Source of the DNA: Plantibacter sp. VKM Ac-2880
GTDB lineage: Bacteria; Actinomycetota; Actinomycetes; Actinomycetales; Microbacteriaceae
NCBI RefSeq assembly: GCF_015351235.1
Contig: NZ_JADKSJ010000001.1
Location: forward strand, 1,093,530-1,117,529
Length of the DNA stretch: 24,000 nt
Direction of reading: 5' to 3'
The notes below the pieces were generated by a model that searched no databases, had not been told where the DNA came from, and was given only the letters and a program-made list of their open reading frames with translations. A program made the position numbers and the translations under genes. Every line of letters begins with the position of its first letter. Position 1 is the first letter of the stretch. This document shows positions 3,931 through 21,623 of the stretch, one piece after another.

Positions 3931-4920
3931 TCAGTGGGCGAGCTGCAGGAGCCGTGCCCGATGCCAGTCGGTCTGTGTCAACGCGGACACCCGCAGGAGT
4001 CCCGTCAGCGCGTCCCATCCGGCGGACCAGCCGATGCGCGAGGCGATGGTCCAGACGTCCGCTTCCGGGTCGTCGGCCAGGACCGACCGCACCTCGTCCG
4101 CCCGGCGCAGGTGGTGCGCCGCCAACTCGTCGCACCGCTCGGCGAGGCCGGTGAAGCGGAAGCCGTGTCCCGGGATCACCTGGTCGCCGTCGTACTCACG
4201 GACGCGGTCGAGCGAGGACAGGTAGGCGGTCACCGGGTTCTCGGCCGTCCGCGCGCCGAGTCCGAGGCCAGAGAAGATCGTGGGGAGGACGTGGTCGCCG
4301 GTGAAGAGGTAGCCGCGGTCCTCATCGCGCAGGGTGAGGTGCCCGGTGGTGTGACCCGGCGTGTGGATGACACGGATCATGCGACCGGGGAGCGCCAGCA
4401 GCTCGCCGTCCTCGAGCGTCCGGTCGGCACGGGTGTCGCCGAGGTGGCCGGCCGGGGCGGCGGCGTCCTCGCTCCAGGGGCGCACGGTCGTGTCATCGGC
4501 CGGGACGCCCCAGGCGTCCAGTGCTGCAGCCAGCTCGGCCGGGCCGGGTGGCGTCGAACCGGCGGCCTCGTCCTCGAGCCGGTGCATGAGGACGGGCGCG
4601 GCCAGCTCTTCCCGCAGGACACCGGCCAGGCCGAGGTGGTCGGGGTGGAGATGGGTCACCACGATGCCGGTGAGGGTGGTGACGCCGACGTCGCGGAGCT
4701 CGCGCAGCAGGTGCTCCCGACCCTCAGGGGTGTCGGTTCCGGGGTCGACGACGATGGCGCGCCCGTCCGTGCCGAAGAGCACCGAGCAGAGGGTGAAGGG
4801 GTTGCCGGGATCGGTGGTCGGAACGGCGATGACGACCGTGTCGGCATCGAGCTGTTCCGTCGGCGGCGTCCGTCCTTCGCGGAAGGCGGCGGCCTGCGAT
4901 TCGCTCGACGAGGTGATCAT
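3931..4920 (-). CDS. MBL-fold metallo-hydrolase
   Basis: Metal-binding motif VVTHLHPDHLG, downstream HTPGHTTGH, and a later GDH. I chose the ATG at 4920 (MITSSSE...). Confidence 0.85.
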   Translation of the reverse strand: MITSSSESQAAAFREGRTPPTEQLDADTVVIAVPTTDPGNPFTLCSVLFGTDGRAIVVDPGTDTPEGREHLLRELRDVGVTTLTGIVVTHLHPDHLGLAGVLREELAAPVLMHRLEDEAAGSTPPGPAELAAALDAWGVPADDTTVRPWSEDAAAPAGHLGDTRADRTLEDGELLALPGRMIRVIHTPGHTTGHLTLRDEDRGYLFTGDHVLPTIFSGLGLGARTAENPVTAYLSSLDRVREYDGDQVIPGHGFRFTGLAERCDELAAHHLRRADEVRSVLADDPEADVWTIASRIGWSAGWDALTGLLRVSALTQTDWHRARLLQLAH

Positions 4921-4996
4921 GGGGGTGCTCCGGGTGCTGTTCGGGGGACGGACCAACCCTAGTCGTGGCTTCCGCGAGGTTCAGTACGATGGGTGC

Positions 4997-5107
4997 ATGA
5001 CCGTCAACGACATTCTCATCGGCGTGATCGCCCTCATCACCGTCCTCGGCGGCATCGGCATGGTCGGCGCGCTCGTCGCGATGGCCAAGTCGGGCTACCA
5101 CGGCTGA
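4997..5107 (+). CDS. Small single-TM protein (36 aa, MTVNDILIGVIALITVLGGIGMVGALVAMAKSGYHG)
   Basis: ATG start with almost exclusively G/C-ending codons and one clear TM helix. It is hidden in the track inside a longer artefactual ORF (4361..5107). The ribosome-binding site is weak. Confidence 0.4.
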   Translation: MTVNDILIGVIALITVLGGIGMVGALVAMAKSGYHG

Positions 5108-5124
5108 CCGCTCGCCTGCCGAGC

Positions 5125-6030
5125 TCAGCGCGCGACGGCCTCGTCCGTCGCCCGCTGGATGGCTGCGAGCGCCGCGGCGACAGCGGAACGCTGCAGTGAG
5201 CCCTTCCGCGCCGTCGCGATGATCTTCCGCTCGCTCATCCCGGAGATCGGCTTGCGGACGACGTCGGCACGCGACCCGATCGCGATGTCGGGGAGGACGG
5301 CGACGGACAGCCCGGCCGCTACGTGGTCGATGACGACCTCGTAGCTCGTGAAGCGTCCGACCACCCGGGGTTCGAAGCCCGAGCGTCGGCACAGCAGTGG
5401 GACGAGTTCGCCGAGGTAGGTGCCCGGGGCGTCGAGGGCCCACGATTCAGCCTGCAGTTCGGCGAACGACACCACCTCGCGTCCGGCGAGTGGGTGGTCG
5501 AGCGGTGCGATGAGCAGGAGCGGATCCGTGGTGAGCGGCACGCTGTGCACCGAGGGGTCGAGGAGGAAACCGTCCTCCTGATCGACCGTGATGACGACGT
5601 CGCAGGTGCCGCGTTGGACGGCCGTGGTGCTCTCGTGCGGTTCGACCTCGATGAGTTCGACCTCGAGTCGCGGGTACTGCTGGGCCAAAGCACGAGCGGC
5701 CGGGATGAGGACCGGGGCGATGACGCTCGCGAAGCCGGCGATGCGGAAGCGTCCGGAGGGCTCGGACTCGACCTCGGCCAGTTCCACCTCGATCGCGTCC
5801 ATCTGCGCGAGGAGCGCCCTGGCGCGTTCCACGAGCAGTGCTCCGGTCGGTGTCAGCGCGAGGGTCCGGCCTCGTCGTTCCAGTAGGGCGGCGCCGGTCT
5901 CCGATTCGAGGACGGAGAGCTGCTGGGAGACCGTCGAGGGGCTCAGGTCGAGCTCGCGGCCGACCGCACGGATCGTGCCGAGGCGGTCGAAGGCCTCGAG
6001 CAGTCGCAGTCGCACGGGGTTCAGGGCCAT
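5125..6030 (-). CDS. LysR-family transcriptional regulator
   Basis: N-terminal LysR HTH (LRLLEAFDRLGTIRAVGRELDLSPSTVSQQLSVLE) and a C-terminal substrate-binding fold. The ATG at 6030 has TACTGT 6 nt upstream and no Shine-Dalgarno sequence, so the mRNA may be leaderless. Confidence 0.9.
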   Translation of the reverse strand: MALNPVRLRLLEAFDRLGTIRAVGRELDLSPSTVSQQLSVLESETGAALLERRGRTLALTPTGALLVERARALLAQMDAIEVELAEVESEPSGRFRIAGFASVIAPVLIPAARALAQQYPRLEVELIEVEPHESTTAVQRGTCDVVITVDQEDGFLLDPSVHSVPLTTDPLLLIAPLDHPLAGREVVSFAELQAESWALDAPGTYLGELVPLLCRRSGFEPRVVGRFTSYEVVIDHVAAGLSVAVLPDIAIGSRADVVRKPISGMSERKIIATARKGSLQRSAVAAALAAIQRATDEAVAR

Positions 6031-16275: not shown

Positions 16276-16384
16276 GCCACCAGTCTGTCTCGATCGAACC
16301 TGGATGTCGGGGGCTTGCGGATGGAGGTGCACGATGTCAGTCGGGCACGGTCCTTGCGCGCACCGAGCGGGCGCACCCCGACTG

Positions 16385-16453
16385 CCCTTCGACAAGCTCA
16401 GGGACCGAAGCGCGTCCGCTTGACCGCGCCTGGTCCTTGAGCTTGTCGAAGGG
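16385..16453. repeat. Inverted repeat / hairpin formed by two opposed copies of the core motif
   Basis: CCCTTCGACAAGCTCAGGGACC (16385-16406) pairs with GGTCCTTGAGCTTGTCGAAGGG (16432-16453). The arms are 22 bp with 1 mismatch and the loop is 25 nt. The right arm is also unit 0 of the 80-bp array. Confidence 0.9.
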
Positions 16454-16893
16454 CTCACGAGGAACCCTTGGAGACGCTGCGGACGCGGAGTGTGTCCGGT
16501 GGACCGTTCGCGGTCACTGAGCTTGTCGAAGTGCTCACGAGGAATCCTTCGAGACGCTGCGGACGCGGAGTGTGTCCGGTGAACCGCTCCCGGTCACTGA
16601 GCTTGTCGAAGTGCTCACGCAGAACCGTTGGGGACGCTGCGGGACCGGCGTGTGTCCGGTGGACCGTTCGCGGTCACTGAGGTTGTCGAAGTGCGCACGA
16701 GGACCCTTCGAGACGCTGCGGACCCGGAGTGTGTCGGGTGGACCGTTCCCGGTCACTGAGCTTGTCGAAGTGCCCACGAGGAATCCTTCGAGACGCTGCG
16801 GACGCGGAGTGTGTCCGGTGGACCGTTCGCGGTCACTGAGCTTGTCGAAGTGCCCACGAAGAACCCTCCGACACGCTCGGGGACCGGAGGTGG
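16438..16893. repeat. Tandem array, about 6 units of 80 bp (unit TGAGCTTGTCGAAGTGCTCACGAGGAATCCTTCGAGACGCTGCGGACGCGGAGTGTGTCCGGTGGACCGTTCGCGGTCAC)
   Basis: TGAG(C/G)TTGTCGAAG starts at 16438, 16518, 16598, 16678, 16757 and 16837, giving periods of 80, 80, 80, 79 and 80. The last unit degenerates and ends at the out-of-frame stop (16894) of the HNH gene. The period is not a multiple of 3. Confidence 0.95.
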
Positions 16894-18164
16894 TCAGAAC
16901 GGTGCGGGATCGGGTTCCGTCCGATGATGTTTCCCGTCGGGTGTCGTCCAGTCGAGGACCCCACCGGCCCGTGTTCGAGGTTCCAGCCCGGGAGGTGCTT
17001 CATGCGGTGGTGATGTCGACACAAGCACGCGAGATTGCCGACGTCCGTTGTCCCTCCGTCTTCCCACGCGACCGAGTGATCGAGATCGCAGGCTCGCGCG
17101 CGCCTCCCGCAGCCCGGTGCGCGGCAGGTGCCGTCCCGCAGGCGCACCGCCCGCTGCAAATCGGCGGGAACGCGATACTGCTTCCGCCCGACGGAGAGCA
17201 CGGCGCCGGTTTCCGGCTGGACGAGGATCCGGGTCAAGCTCGGCGCGTTGACCGCGAGCCGGGCGGCGGTCTCCGGGTCGATCGGACCGTACCCGTCGAG
17301 GGTGGCGGGTGCGTCGGAGACGCCGGCCATGCTCAGCGCCGGGACGGTAATCTGCACGGTCGGCTTGATGTGCTCCTGGACCTCGATCGGGTGTGGGAGC
17401 ACCCGGTTCGACATCACGTCTTCCGGCGTCACTCCGGCGAGGGCTAGCGCTGCGAGGGCGTCGGCCTGCAGCTGTCCGCAGGTGCGAGCATCGCCGGCCT
17501 TGCGTGATTCGGCAGCCGCTGCCTCGACCCGTTCGACGATGCCCTGCGCGATGGGTGCGGTGGTGAACAGGTGTACCCACGCCATGCCGTCGGCGGCGGG
17601 CTCGAACTCCACCCGACGGTCGGCCTCCGAGCGGATTGTGCGAGCGGTGATCGACTCGGGGTGGAGTCGTTCGCGGAGGACACGGGCGCGCTTGCGGAGG
17701 TTCGCGTTGGTCGTTTCCTCCGCAACCGGCAACGCCGCCTCCAGGAACGCCGCCCGACCCGCGGCCGGCACGTCGCAGAGTTGATCGATGATCGTCTGCG
17801 CATGCCGGGCCGAGATGCGGCCAGCCTCAAGCGAGGCGAGCACGGCCGGGGCTTCATTCACGAGACGTTCCGCGTCGTTCGTCGCACGCTGAACCGTCTG
17901 CTCAGGCGTCCGCGTCGCCATCGCGAGCGCCGCACAAGTGGACCGGCGGGAGAGCGCCTGCCGTTCCGCGGGCGGGTACACGGCCGGGACCACGGAGTCG
18001 GCGAGGGCGTCGGCATACGCCGCGGACCGGGCCAAGAGTCGCGCCGCCCGAGCGGCCAGTACAGCCTGCTGCCGACAGATCTCCGCATACTCGTCCGAGA
18101 ACTCCGCGAGCTGCGCGGCGTACTCGTCGCCAGCTCGAACTGCGGAAGTGGTGCTCTCGGTCAT
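16833..18164 (-). CDS. DUF222 / HNH endonuclease (REP13E12-like), probably frameshifted near the 3' end
   Basis: Typical DUF222 body and HNH core CRAPGCGRRARACDLDHSVAWEDGGTTDVGNLACLCRHHHRMKH. I chose the ATG at 18164 because the upstream extension uses rare codons. The C-terminal tail of this frame reads into the repeat (..ALRQAQ*). The family-typical ending GGVLDWTTPDGKHHRTEPDPAPF* lies in another frame and stops at 16894. Confidence 0.9.
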   Translation of the reverse strand: MTESTTSAVRAGDEYAAQLAEFSDEYAEICRQQAVLAARAARLLARSAAYADALADSVVPAVYPPAERQALSRRSTCAALAMATRTPEQTVQRATNDAERLVNEAPAVLASLEAGRISARHAQTIIDQLCDVPAAGRAAFLEAALPVAEETTNANLRKRARVLRERLHPESITARTIRSEADRRVEFEPAADGMAWVHLFTTAPIAQGIVERVEAAAAESRKAGDARTCGQLQADALAALALAGVTPEDVMSNRVLPHPIEVQEHIKPTVQITVPALSMAGVSDAPATLDGYGPIDPETAARLAVNAPSLTRILVQPETGAVLSVGRKQYRVPADLQRAVRLRDGTCRAPGCGRRARACDLDHSVAWEDGGTTDVGNLACLCRHHHRMKHLPGWNLEHGPVGSSTGRHPTGNIIGRNPIPHRSDHLRSPSVSEGSSWALRQAQ

Positions 18165-18236
18165 GGAACAAGTCCACCATGGACCACTGACATTCCAGAT
18201 GCGGAGTATCCGCGTTGGTGGACGCATCTCCGTGCA

Positions 18237-18344
18237 CCCTTCGACAAGCTCAGGGATCGGGGTGCTCGTGTGCCCTTCGACAAGCTCAGGGACCGGGGTG
18301 CTCGTGTGCCCTTCGACAAGCTCAGGGACCGGCGGAGGGTTGCT
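18237..18344. repeat. Tandem array, 3 units of 36 bp (CCCTTCGACAAGCTCAGGGACCGGGGTGCTCGTGTG)
   Basis: Unit starts at 18237, 18273 and 18309. The core is the reverse complement of the core in the 80-bp array. Confidence 0.95.
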
Positions 18345-18376
18345 CAGGGACCGGAAGGGTGAGAGGTCCGCTGAGC
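18342..18376 (-). terminator. Hairpin from partial inverted cores (GCTCAGGGACC / GGTCCGCTGAGC), possible terminator of the lipoprotein gene
   Basis: 11-bp stem with one bulge and a 12-nt loop, beginning 10 nt after the stop codon at 18386 on the minus strand. There is no U-tract. Confidence 0.4.
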
Positions 18377-18385
18377 TTGGGCGGG

Positions 18386-18904
18386 TCAGTAGTTCAGGCA
18401 GCGATCCGGATCCTCGATCTCCGGCGGATCACCCTGATAGAGGGTGAAGAAGTTCTCGGCCGGGCCGGACAGGGACCCGCGGGGGTGGACGCACAGGCGA
18501 GCGAGATCGTTGTCGCTCCGCACGCTGGAGGTGATCGATGACCGCTCGCAGGCGCCGTCGTCGGGCCGCAGGACGAGGTCCCGGTTGGTTCCCTCGTTGT
18601 CCACGACCCACGTTCCGGAGAAGTCGATGACGTCGTTCTCGCGTGGGTCGTCGTCTCCGCACTGCACCTCCGAGGGCCAGGCGGTGGCGTCGAAGGTTCC
18701 ATCGTCAGCCAGCTCGAGCCAGGTGTCTCCGCTGCGCCACGTGCCGACCGCTTCGTCAGCAGACATCCCGTATCGCGTATCGGAGCACGAGACGAGCGAG
18801 GTGCTCAGCAGGGCGCCGAGGACGGAAGCCGCCAACCGGTGCGCTCCACGGACGGTCGCTCGCTGCGCGCGGCTGATCGTTCGGCGTGACGGTCCCGAGT
18901 CCAC
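18386..18904 (-). CDS. Hypothetical lipoprotein
   Basis: Arg-rich n-region, hydrophobic core and lipobox LVSC. The mature part is Asp/Trp-rich with 4 Cys. It has a GTG start at 18904 and no ATG alternative upstream of the signal peptide. Confidence 0.6.
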   Translation of the reverse strand: MDSGPSRRTISRAQRATVRGAHRLAASVLGALLSTSLVSCSDTRYGMSADEAVGTWRSGDTWLELADDGTFDATAWPSEVQCGDDDPRENDVIDFSGTWVVDNEGTNRDLVLRPDDGACERSSITSSVRSDNDLARLCVHPRGSLSGPAENFFTLYQGDPPEIEDPDRCLNY

Positions 18905-19020: not shown

Positions 19021-19022
19021 CG

Positions 19023-19095
19023 TGGCTCCGACGGGCGTCGATCCCGTGACCTCACGATTTTCAGTCGTGCGCTCTACCAACTGAGCTACAGAGCC
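19023..19095 (-). tRNA. tRNA-Phe (GAA)
   Basis: Folded by hand: acceptor GGCTCTG/CGGAGCC, D-arm GCTC-AGTTGGTA-GAGC, anticodon arm CACGA-CTGAAAA-TCGTG, T-arm ACGGG-ATCGACG-CCCGT. Total 73 nt with no encoded CCA. The T-loop starts with A rather than T. Confidence 0.9.
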
Positions 19096-19126
19096 GAGTA
19101 CATCAGCTGCACGAACGGCGACGATG

Positions 19127-19163
19127 TCTCAAAAGCAGAAGCCCTCCCTTGCGAGAGGGCTTC
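19127..19163 (-). terminator. Terminator-like hairpin between tRNA-Asp and tRNA-Phe
   Basis: Minus strand: GAAGCCCTC, an 8-nt loop, GAGGGCTTC, followed by TGCTTTTGA. The 9-bp perfect stem lies at 19138-19163. Confidence 0.4.
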
Positions 19164-19173
19164 CGACCTTTTG

Positions 19174-19247
19174 CGACCCTGACGGGACTTGAACCCGCGA
19201 CCTCCGCCGTGACAGGGCGGCACGCTAACCAACTGCGCTACAGGGCC
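19174..19247 (-). tRNA. tRNA-Asp (GTC)
   Basis: Folded by hand: acceptor GGCCCTG/CAGGGTC, anticodon loop CTGTCAC, T-arm GCGGG-TTCAAGT-CCCGT. Total 74 nt. Confidence 0.95.
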
Positions 19248-19364
19248 ATACATGTTGAATTGGTGATGATAAGAACTGCGGTGATGCTGGTGTTGCTCAG
19301 TGCTTCTCGCAGTCGCGCAGACTCACTATACCTGAATCTGAGCGGCTGTTTTTCCAGTAGTCGG

Positions 19365-19440
19365 TGGTGACCCCAACGGGATTCGAACCCGTGCTGCCGC
19401 CGTGAAAGGGCGGTGTCCTAGGCCGCTAAACGATAGGGCC
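19365..19440 (-). tRNA. tRNA-Glu (TTC), CCA encoded
   Basis: Folded by hand: acceptor GGCCCTA/TGGGGTC, anticodon arm CCGCC-CTTTCAC-GGCGG, T-arm ACGGG-TTCGAAT-CCCGT. A 3' ACCA is present. Confidence 0.95.
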
Positions 19441-19503: not shown

Positions 19504-19729
19504 AATCGGGTTCCCACGACCCCGTTTCGCGGTCGACGCCGGATCTCGCGACAGGCGCCGAATGACCGCTGAGCCGCACATGGGCGGGGTTAGCCTCGGG
19601 CGTGGCACCATGCCCGCTCGGCTGTCGGGCGGGGTGTCCGAGGGCTGTCCCCACCCCTTCGGGAGTACCGTGGACAGTGGTACAGATGTGACCGATGTGA
19701 CTGCAGCGAACCGAGATGGGCCGTACTTC

Positions 19730-21025
19730 ATGAGCAAGAGACTTCCCGGTGCCTCGCGCCGAGGCCGGACGACGACCGCCGGGACGGTGTCCTCCGCCCG
19801 TTGGCGCGGACGCCTCGCCGCCGCGGTCGTGATGTCCCTCGCGATCGTCGGGTCCTTCGGCATCGCGGGACCCGCCTCGGCAGCCGACTACCCCTCGTGG
19901 GACGACGTCCAGGCGGCGAAGGGCAATGAGGCTGCGAAGGCCGCCGAGGTCACGAACATCAAGAACTTCATCGTCCAGTTGCAGGACGAACTGCAGGTGG
20001 CCCAGGACGAGGCCGAGAAGCGCGGAACCGAGTTCCAGGCGGCTGAAGAGGCGTTCTTCGAGGCTGACGCCCGTGCGACCGCGATCCAGGCCCAGGCCGA
20101 CGCGAAGACCACCGAAGCCGACACGGCGACCAAGCAGGCCGGTCGGGTCGCCTCCCAGCTGTACCGCTCCGGCGGTGCAGACCTCAGCCTGAGCCTCTTC
20201 CTCGACGGGGAGAGCAAGGGCGCGACCGACCTGCTGTCGAAGCTCGGCAACATGAACCAGGTCGCCGAGCACAGCAACGGTGTCTACGAGCAGGCTGTCG
20301 CCGCACGGAACACCGCAGCCGCACTCGGTGAGCAGGCCGGCGTCGCCCGTGACGAACGCGAGTCGCTGCGGCAGGCCGCGCAGGTCGCCATGCAGGCCGC
20401 GCAGGAGGCGGCATCCGCTGCAGCGGCGAAGCTGGAGCAGAACCAGGAACTCATCGTCACGCTCAACGCCCAGTTGACGGCGTTGCAGGACACGACGGCG
20501 AAGACGGTCCAGGACTACGAGGCCGGCGTCGCCGCGGCGAAGGCGAAAGCCGCAGCGGAGGCGGCCGCCCGAGGGCAGAGCGCCGACGGCGGTCAGCTCA
20601 GCAGCCAGGGCTGGGCCATCCCGGCATCCGGCAGCATCTCCGGCACCTACGGGTATCGCGACCCGATCTCCACCGGCGGCGGCAGTTCAGGCAGCTTCCA
20701 CCGGGGTACGGACATCGCGGGCGGGTGCGGGATCCCGATCTACGCGGCGACCTCCGGCACGGTGACCTACGCCGGGTGGTACGGCACCTACGGCAACTTC
20801 ATCCTCATCGATCACGGCTCGGGTGTCTCGACCGGCTACGCGCACATCGTGGACGGCGGCATCCAGGTCGGTGTCGGCTACCAGGTCTCCGCCGGGCAGG
20901 TCATCGCCTACGTCGGCACGACCGGTGCCTCAACCGGCTGCCACCTGCACTTCGAGGTCCGCATCAACGGCAACGCGATCGACGCACAGCCGTTCATGGC
21001 CGACCGCGGCGCACCGCTCGGCTGA
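19730..21025 (+). CDS. Secreted coiled-coil M23 (LytM-type) metallopeptidase, paralog 2
   Basis: I chose the ATG at 19730 (MSKRLPGASRRGR...). Signal peptide ASA|ADYPSWDDV, a helical Ala/Gln/Glu region, and an M23 domain with HRGTD and HLH intact. The track's upstream extension (from 19562) has poor codon bias. Confidence 0.9.
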   Translation: MSKRLPGASRRGRTTTAGTVSSARWRGRLAAAVVMSLAIVGSFGIAGPASAADYPSWDDVQAAKGNEAAKAAEVTNIKNFIVQLQDELQVAQDEAEKRGTEFQAAEEAFFEADARATAIQAQADAKTTEADTATKQAGRVASQLYRSGGADLSLSLFLDGESKGATDLLSKLGNMNQVAEHSNGVYEQAVAARNTAAALGEQAGVARDERESLRQAAQVAMQAAQEAASAAAAKLEQNQELIVTLNAQLTALQDTTAKTVQDYEAGVAAAKAKAAAEAAARGQSADGGQLSSQGWAIPASGSISGTYGYRDPISTGGGSSGSFHRGTDIAGGCGIPIYAATSGTVTYAGWYGTYGNFILIDHGSGVSTGYAHIVDGGIQVGVGYQVSAGQVIAYVGTTGASTGCHLHFEVRINGNAIDAQPFMADRGAPLG

Positions 21026-21052
21026 TCGCGGCGCACCGCTCGGCTGATCGCG
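21009..21052. repeat. 22-bp tandem duplication spanning the M23 stop codon (GGCGCACCGCTCGGCTGATCGC x2)
   Basis: Two identical copies at 21009-21030 and 21031-21052, with a partial third copy (GGCAC). Confidence 0.9.
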
Positions 21053-21063
21053 GCACTCCGCAC

Positions 21064-21103
21064 GACGAAGCGGCCGGCACCCTCGGGTGTCGGCCGCTTC
21101 GTC
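21064..21103. terminator. Long perfect hairpin between convergent M23 and ppa genes
   Basis: GACGAAGCGGCCG and CGGCCGCTTCGTC form a 13-bp stem. The inner loop pairs further (CACCC-TC-GGGTG). Neither side has a U-tract, as is common in high-GC actinobacteria. Confidence 0.6.
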
Positions 21104-21131: not shown

Positions 21132-21623
21132 TCAGTGACCCTCCGCCTTGAGCTTCTCGAAGCCCGCGAGGATGATCTTCTCGGCCGCGGCGGCGTCGCC
21201 CCAGCCGTCGATGCGAGCCCACTTGCCGGGCTCGGTGTCCTTGTAGTGGACGAAGAAGTGCTCGATCTCGTCGCGCGTCGCCTGCGGGATGTCGTTCAGG
21301 TCCTGGATGTGCGCCCAGCGCGGGTCCTTGTACTGCACGGCGATGACCTTGTCGTCCCCGCCACCGTCGTCGGTCATGTGCAGCACGCCGACCGGACGGA
21401 CCTTGATGCCGACGCCCGGGAACGTCGGGAAGTCGAGGAGGACCAGCACGTCGACCGGGTCGCCGTCCTCGCCGAGGGTGTTCTCGAAGAAGCCGTAGTC
21501 GGTGGGGTAGACGAAGCTCGTGAACAGCACGCGGTCGAGGAAGACCCGACCGGTCTCGTGGTCGATCTCGTACTTGTTGCGGCTGCCCCGCGGGATCTCG
21601 ATGACGGCGTCGTACTCGGCCAT
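21132..21623 (-). CDS. ppa: Inorganic pyrophosphatase (family I)
   Basis: IEIPRGSRNKYE......DR......YP.DYGF...TL..DGDP.D.LVL and DDK..AV are canonical. The ATG at 21623 has AAGGAG upstream. The track's longer start was trimmed. Confidence 0.95.
   Translation of the reverse strand: MAEYDAVIEIPRGSRNKYEIDHETGRVFLDRVLFTSFVYPTDYGFFENTLGEDGDPVDVLVLLDFPTFPGVGIKVRPVGVLHMTDDGGGDDKVIAVQYKDPRWAHIQDLNDIPQATRDEIEHFFVHYKDTEPGKWARIDGWGDAAAAEKIILAGFEKLKAEGH

Follow-up and report, generated by a model that had tools for sequence, protein, structure and literature searches.

We analyzed a 24-kb stretch of the genome of Plantibacter sp. VKM Ac-2880 (the window) that carries a gene for a protein with DUF222 and HNH nuclease domains, bracketed by tandem arrays of one short repeat, here called the core (CTTCGACAAGCTCAGGGACCG, 21 nt). 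DUF222/HNH genes, which include REP13E12, have been known as multicopy actinobacterial repeats since the first Mycobacterium tuberculosis genome. To our knowledge, their ends, regulation, and way of spreading have so far been undefined. A preliminary description of the window took its opposed arrays for complex terminal inverted repeats. We found that the arrays do belong with the gene and that the reading of them as transposon ends is unsupported. The features of the locus, in coordinates of the window, are as follows.

16384 to 16454, no strand: outer terminal hairpin, with 23-nt arms (16384-16406 and 16432-16454, 96% complementary) around a 25-nt spacer; two opposed full cores.
16431 to 16893, minus strand: downstream array, 5.7 units of 80 bp, each unit with one good GTG-type core and a decayed opposed core.
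16866 to 16886, plus strand: degenerate core (3 mismatches) directly after the family-typical stop codon, in the orientation of the upstream cores.
16894 to 18164, minus strand: DUF222 and HNH nuclease gene (Pfam), a 1,271-nt allele with a 1-nt deletion.
18165 to 18198, minus strand: promoter-like leader, CTGGAATGTCAGTGGTCCATGGTGGACT-TGTTCC directly before the ATG, with a TGTCRG-N10-TnnnnT layout.
18237 to 18338, plus strand: upstream array, three 36-bp units with GGG-type cores at 18239, 18275, and 18311, antisense to the gene.
18342 to 18376, no strand: partial-core "stutter" (GCTCAGGGACC) and one opposed half-core, forming a weak 11-bp hairpin.

We scanned the window for the core, allowing up to 3 mismatches and using 100 shuffles as a control, and called tandem arrays with Tandem Repeats Finder. 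The scan gave 11 matches, all of them inside 16387-18331, and the shuffles gave an expectation of 0. Six matches lie on the minus strand downstream of the gene (16431, 16511, 16591, 16671, 16750, and 16830), and the loop TTCGACAAGCTCA is read on that strand at each of them. The other five lie on the plus strand. Two of these, at 16387 and the degenerate 16866, sit one at each edge of the downstream array, and the remaining three are the upstream cores. Tandem Repeats Finder called an 80-bp unit in 5.7 copies downstream (16438-16889, 88% matches) and a 36-bp unit in 2.7 copies upstream (18237-18332, 98% matches). The three upstream units and the reverse-complement cores of the 80-bp units had both been noted in the preliminary description, and both stand. 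It had also placed a hairpin at each outer end. The left one is strong (DNA fold of -36 kcal/mol, z = -9.2), but the right one is weak, an 11-bp stem with a bulge that is built of half-cores only (z = -2.8), and it is confined to the window; paralogous loci show direct partial repeats there instead. The claim that the downstream array ends exactly at the stop codon held to within 5 to 7 nt (core end at 16886, stop at 16894-16896), not exactly, and this stop is out of frame. We rejected a CRISPR (clustered regularly interspaced short palindromic repeats) array, since the "spacers" repeat too (the 80-bp units are 88% alike) and the Pfam-scanned neighbor genes include no Cas family. We also rejected, on anatomy, a miniature inverted-repeat transposable element.

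The protein scored 84.1 bits for DUF222 (PF02720; cutoff, 24.4; E = 1.4e-23) and 25.2 bits for HNH (PF01844; cutoff, 21.4). The HNH residues C347, C352, C359, D362, H363, N377, C382, H384 to H386, and H390 are invariant in 41 relatives, and C380 is nearly so. In a sequence search of the PDB, the sole match was an IscB HNH domain, and it was weak (E = 0.018). The predicted structure was confident for the N-terminal helical domain only and gave no significant fold match. The window protein is 100% identical to Plantibacter sp. VKM Ac-2880 protein P0001. We found that the reading frame is intact in seven of eight compared copies and that the window copy is the exception. It has 1,271 nt, against 1,272 nt in seven relatives, owing to the loss of one base from a short C/G run near 16965-16968. 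As a result, the last ~30 codons are shifted, the open frame continues into the array as far as 16833, and the family-typical C terminus (...GGVLDWTTPDGKHHRTEPDPAPF) and the stop at 16894 are out of frame. All the conserved HNH residues lie upstream of this frameshift, which may be a true inactivating mutation or a homopolymer sequencing error.

As the preliminary description expected, the gene is multicopy. The best 120 of 586 matches were 56 to 100% identical, the named ones among them were all from Plantibacter, and up to four named matches came from different contigs of a single strain. We read at least five distinct chromosomal loci of the gene, designated here by L numbers. Three copies lie between a VIT1 gene and a gene for a 217-residue protein (L121, L122, and L123), one lies between two DUF805 genes (L124), and two adjoin glycoside hydrolase genes (L135 and L136). 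L126 is the orthologous locus of the window in another species, and L131 to L134 are four metagenome contigs with that same locus.

We found the same order of elements at five independent sites: the window with L126, L121 to L123, L124, L057, and L135. In the orientation of the gene, one to nine antisense cores come first, then the conserved leader (~70 nt) and the gene itself, and after these a core close to the stop codon and usually a core array. The stop-proximal core starts 8 to 17 nt past the stop, and in L057 it contains the stop codon. It is antisense in most copies, sense in L135, and decayed or missing in L124 and L126. The place of the degenerate 16866 core of the window is taken by an intact core in L121 and L122 and by one that overlaps the stop codon in L057. 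The outermost downstream part is usually an array of the GTG variant in sense orientation, closed by one opposed core; this terminal opposed core was found also in L121, L122, L126, and L135. Array periods differ, with paralogs having 61-bp periods in the downstream array (80 bp in the window) and 1 to 9 units of ~58-bp period in the upstream array. L136 has one intact core on each side, the others being decayed. Other DUF222 subfamilies show a looser form of the layout, with antisense cores upstream of the TGTCRG promoter motif in L086 (Plantibacter) and in L096 and L110 (Microbacterium; L110 only 29% identical).

We compared the density of loops near DUF222 genes (within 700 bp) and elsewhere, using only loci that had been found by their protein. 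The density was 4.18 per kb near the genes (41 in 9.8 kb) and 0.039 per kb elsewhere (3 in 76.9 kb), and one of the three background matches falls within a gene by chance. Many cores have no HNH gene beside them, as would be expected if both simply pile up in permissive intergenic DNA. We regard such a coincidence as exceedingly unlikely, given the ~100-fold enrichment and the fixed orientation and start and stop distances at five or more loci. The layout recurs and the cores are enriched, and we concluded that the link between the arrays and the gene, as proposed in the preliminary description, is real. That description had counted cores scattered without HNH genes as a sign of coincidence. 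Such clusters are indeed the majority in Plantibacter, where they lie between ordinary transporter genes, and make up all of those in other phyla; to this extent the sign is partly present. This indicates that the dependence is one-way: the gene is accompanied by cores, and the cores do not need the gene.

The same loci bear on whether the arrays are the ends of a transposon, recognized by its own nuclease. The two large arrays of the window are opposed and its left end is a strong hairpin, as such an element would have. In most copies, however, the cores nearest to the gene on its two sides share one orientation, which makes them direct repeats and not inverted ones, and the outer arrays vary. 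L057 has no inverted downstream array, its stop codon lying inside a single same-orientation core, and L124 has no terminal opposed core. Among the orthologous loci (L126 and L131 to L134), the outer arrays vary in the number of units, in period, and in composition, and this variation in length and period also counts against defined ends. The preliminary description suggested looking there for an empty site and a target duplication. All six orthologous loci examined were occupied, and no duplication was evident at the outer edges of the copies compared. An exact match to the 152-residue neighbor of the window gene was found only on a 3.5-kb contig that is broken at the array, a 93% homolog marked an occupied orthologous locus, and two more distant homologs were at nonsyntenic sites; the four loci obtained by scanning metagenomes with the lipoprotein were likewise occupied. 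Target duplications, empty sites, and near-identical copies were not seen at the loci examined, and we know of no HNH nuclease that acts as a transposase. We consider a transposon with complex terminal inverted repeats very improbable.

We next asked how the copies have diverged. The ratio of nonsynonymous to synonymous substitution rates (dN/dS) was 0.06 to 0.13 in all 28 pairwise comparisons of HNH copies and 0.07 to 0.11 between the window and its relatives. With dN/dS near 0.1, purifying selection on the DUF222/HNH gene is strong, and we concluded that the gene is functional. Sharing a locus does not make copies from different genomes more alike: they are 82 to 85% identical, compared with 82 to 88% for copies at different loci, and no near-identical pair was found among the copies read. 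L121 and L122 represent one locus in two strains. Their flanking genes have dS values of 0.00 to 0.05, whereas the HNH gene has a dS of 0.30. Within the gene, the first 420 nt have 5 mismatches and the next 840 have ~94, mostly synonymous. The mosaic boundary is sharp and lies inside the HNH gene (4420-5260 in both), with 1% divergence before it and 11% after. The jump in divergence between near-identical flanks indicates a conversion tract that came from a diverged, functional paralog.

Upstream of the gene, the 28-nt sequence CTGGAATGTCAGTGGTCCATGGTGGACT lies six bases before the ATG in all 14 DUF222 loci that it matched, with 0 to 3 mismatches. The proteins of these loci are 58 to 100% identical, and conservation is higher in the leader than in the coding sequence. 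The motif TGTCRGTG lies at the same distance from the ATG in five DUF222 genes of two genera, including Microbacterium. Previous work described the RecA-independent DNA damage promoter of PafBC (RecA-NDp) as TGTCGG (or TGTCAG)-N10-TA-N3-T, spanning -35 to -10 (PMC8151990). The window leader matches TGTCAG-N10 exactly, and so the first half and the spacing agree. The -10-like hexamer is TGGACT in the window and TTGAAT or TTGGAT in Microbacterium, with T at positions 1 and 6 and no A at position 2, and for this reason membership in the PafBC class is unproven. The sequence suggests that the leader is a candidate PafBC-type damage promoter, and the short distance between promoter and ATG points to a leaderless mRNA. 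The leader also holds a GTCCA-TGG-TGGAC inverted repeat.

The core is itself a small hairpin, with a 13-nt loop (TTCGACARGCTCA), a 3-bp closing stem, and a trailing ACC. Its consensus is nnnGnCCC-TTCGACAAGCTCA-GGGACCG; it has no GTAG-type head, and its loop is all but invariant, with a single A/G position. We searched species-representative genomes for the exact 18-base pattern TTCGACAAGCTCAGNGACC, which turned up in at least 119 stretches belonging to many phyla. The matches listed include Bacteroidota, Fibrobacterota, Spirochaetota, Cyanobacteria, Planctomycetota, Verrucomicrobiota, Gemmatimonadota, Chloroflexota, Binatia, a Sulfurovum, and Microbacteriaceae, and Sphingomonadaceae also carry the core with an identical loop. 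This bears out the suggestion of the preliminary description that the core belongs to a widespread class of intergenic repeats. Often the core is on several contigs of a genome and in close inverted pairs. It also occurs on Microbacterium plasmids and on megaplasmids of Sphingobium, Novosphingobium, and Phyllobacterium. The two plasmid cores that we inspected (L141, 3501-3560, Microbacterium sp. No. 7 plasmid B; L142, 2501-2521, Sphingobium megaplasmid) lie in unannotated intergenic DNA at 3' ends of ordinary genes. None of 50,697 phage records contained the core.

We found that the stem covaries. The triplets that flank the loop pair in 223 of 248 instances (CCC/GGG in 119, CAC/GTG in 50, CGC/GCG in 25, and others in the rest), and the three bases 5' of the loop lay outside the search pattern. 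The inner three pairs are formed in 140 to 145 of 149 distinct sequences. The middle pair shows 66 double changes and is C-G in 73, A-U in 31, and G-C in 30. The covariation score was 0.301, compared with 0.083 for shuffled sequences, and none of 500 shuffles reached 0.301. Long extended stems were considered and set aside: past 3 bp, 2.2 pairs form compared with 1.75 in shuffled flanks, slightly above. Rfam, at the gathering score, found three tRNAs only in the window and nothing in 15 core-bearing loci; with E values of up to 10, 16300-18450 gave subthreshold miRNA-like noise on the hairpin only. A full-text literature search with the literal core, its RNA form, and the peptides from its frame translations returned nothing relevant. 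The core behaves as an element of the REP (repetitive extragenic palindromic) kind, missing from Rfam and with no earlier description in the literature searched.

Two side observations concern how cores are arranged. Cores commonly form small inverted pairs with unlike closing triplets, GGG type facing GTG type or GTG facing GCG (L031, 3957-4002; L073, 6988-7033; L066, 3072-3121; L058, 2221-2268). Such a pair could fold in two ways, into two small stem-loops whose loops are complementary or into a single long hairpin that has symmetric mismatches. The stutter is a direct repeat, in two to four copies, of the 3' portion of the core alone (GCTCAGGGACC and ~10 nt more), often at the outer edge of a cluster (window, 18342-18354; L121 and L122, upstream of 3440; L140, 3880-3930; also L029, L031, L033, L052, and L014). 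It is common to Plantibacter, Microbacterium, Treponema, and Bacteroidales and hints at a shared mode of growth.

We monitored the gene context of the core in core-bearing genomes with a G+C content of 58% or less. In these genomes the core lies at gene 3' ends in either orientation, with 28 convergent, 37 tandem, and 1 divergent placement. It is mostly intergenic; 43 of 133 cores are inside an open reading frame (ORF) of at least 90 codons, but spurious ORFs running through the repeat arrays themselves have probably raised this count. These placements, together with the T-runs that follow some copies, are what would be seen if the hairpins were REP-like terminators that block read-through around a toxic nuclease and leave it to the damage-responsive promoter alone, with the cassette multiplied by segmental duplication and the repeats taking no part in its movement. 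Consistently with this, a long hairpin begins within ~10 to 20 nt of the stop in most copies, the promoter is very strongly conserved, and the upstream neighbor in the window is co-oriented with the gene. Insulation leaves unexplained why one core orientation is kept on both immediate flanks, why arrays reach nine units where one hairpin suffices, and why the gene is a recombination hotspot. We think it rather unlikely that insulation is the whole explanation, but it is compatible with, and not exclusive of, the homing-like cassette set out below.

The genes that flank the core in these genomes bear on whether it has a partner gene. The 112 flanking ORFs fell into 175 Pfam families, none with more than 3 members, and no transposase family was enriched among them. 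When we searched the 119 listed core-bearing stretches with the window HNH protein by tblastn, four matched, all from Microbacteriaceae. The hairpin is far more widespread than the gene. This matters for a model in which the DUF222/HNH nuclease makes and disperses the hairpins and the repeats are its nonautonomous passengers, as REPs are for REP-associated tyrosine transposases (RAYTs). Locally that model fits: like a RAYT gene, this gene has repeats on its flanks in a fixed orientation, the genomes that carry it have many clusters with no HNH gene, and the arrays beside the gene turn over fast. It is hard to reconcile with an identical-loop core dispersed in Bacteroidota, Fibrobacterota, Spirochaetota, Cyanobacteria, Planctomycetota, Sphingomonadaceae, and others, phyla in which no adjacent DUF222-like gene was found. 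The tblastn and Pfam counts tell against it as well, and the gene is multicopy, while RAYT genes are usually single. We consider a RAYT-like role of this nuclease doubtful.

Small GIY-YIG (UPF0213-like) nuclease genes were seen 50 to 300 nt from the core in Sulfurovum, Verrucomicrobia, and Flavobacteriales genomes, and a fourth was ~1 kb away (L094, 1375-1761; L079, 172-528; L008, 7328-7849; L075, 5440-6715). The adjacency is limited to 3 to 4 of the 119 loci and is perhaps not chance. We dropped GIY-YIG genes as the general partner of the core on account of these low numbers. A broader possibility is that the hairpin is pan-bacterial and spreads horizontally, serving as a landing pad and homology platform for unrelated nucleases (DUF222/HNH in Actinomycetota and GIY-YIG in several other phyla) that would nick the hairpin and ride repeat-to-repeat conversion. 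We hold this to be a speculative and improbable extension. If it were true, it would amount to mobility that dispenses with both a transposase and a conserved host gene as target.

The explanation that we favor, to which we give about an even chance, is that the locus is one copy of a nuclease cassette that lies within REP-like hairpin repeats and has spread by recombination in a homing-like manner. The cassette consists, in order, of an antisense core array, a candidate PafBC-type promoter, the DUF222/HNH gene, a core at or over the stop codon, and an inverted-pair core array. According to this model, homologous recombination or gene conversion would carry a copy of the gene and at least its nearest cores to other core clusters. 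Scattered cores would supply the homology and possibly the cut site of the nuclease. Spread would be homing-like and not cut-and-paste; the nuclease may stimulate it, and DNA damage may be its trigger. The hairpin arrays are probably transcription stops too, and the nuclease would then be silent unless the damage-responsive promoter fires. We infer this mechanism from the recurring architecture, the conserved leader, and the one conversion tract.

Several points weigh against this explanation. The gene was present in all six orthologous loci examined and no empty site was found, so no recent movement is documented. The presence of the cassette at many loci could stem from one old burst or from segmental duplications. 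If the core were a double-strand cut site, the many HNH-less cores of a genome would be a hazard. L057, L086, L096, and L110 were found through the core itself and, being ascertained in this way, are no independent tests of the layout. Among more distant paralogs, L138 has a decayed core only, L140 has one core, and L125 has none. The departure of the -10-like hexamer from the PafBC motif, described above, belongs here as well.

The known kinds of element involved are REP-like repeats with an associated nuclease and homing-like nuclease genes. REP13E12 of M. tuberculosis shares the DUF222 plus HNH Pfam architecture, is multicopy, and is a hotspot of gene conversion between paralogs. REP13E12 regions are among the most often converted M. 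tuberculosis loci (PMC13061034, a 2026 preprint), and five putative HNH endonucleases of that species are induced by DNA damage in a RecA-dependent manner (PMC8151990). The papers searched held no description of flanking hairpin arrays or a defined promoter cassette for REP13E12 or DUF222 genes. Unlike REP13E12, which we compared by description only, the Plantibacter copies are 12 to 18% diverged and under strong purifying selection.

REPs and bacterial interspersed mosaic elements, with their RAYTs, in Proteobacteria are likewise short intergenic hairpins that sit at the 3' ends of genes, oriented either way and often in inverted pairs or clusters, and a nuclease-type gene is flanked by the repeats. 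Here, in contrast, the flanked gene is DUF222/HNH and not a Y1 HUH transposase, the GTAG head is missing, the conserved part is the 13-nt loop and not the stem, and the repeat is found across phyla and is not species specific. Free-standing homing endonuclease genes of the HNH and GIY-YIG types resemble the cassette in being selfish-looking nuclease genes with a conversion tract, here with shared cores on both sides, and in three other phyla the same core has GIY-YIG genes next to it. They differ in that no empty and occupied allele pair was found among the loci examined, the copies here are old and strongly constrained, and the "target" would be a dispersed repeat and not a conserved gene. 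Insertion sequences that target REP sequences are also known (IS1397 and members of the IS110 family). These too place a mobile gene inside clusters of hairpin repeats, but no transposase or recombinase is present here.

Elsewhere in the window, a 22-bp unit is repeated 2.9 times (20998-21061, 90% matches) across the stop codon of an M23 peptidase gene (19562-21025), and a terminator-like hairpin follows near 21066-21100. A loop-like match at 21149 was dismissed as chance on account of its coding location and its one mismatch. Just past the lipoprotein-like gene that borders the upstream array is a cluster of tRNA-Phe, tRNA-Asp, and tRNA-Glu genes (19022-19440, minus strand).

The near-invariant loop and the covarying stem, kept across distant phyla, suggest either an agent that spreads the hairpin widely or constraint by a universal component of the cell. 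For the DUF222 family, one subfamily now has a readable anatomy, with a fixed promoter, fixed flanking hairpins, strong selection on the protein, and conversion between copies. A cassette that can be read in this way turns "assumed mobile" into specific, testable questions.

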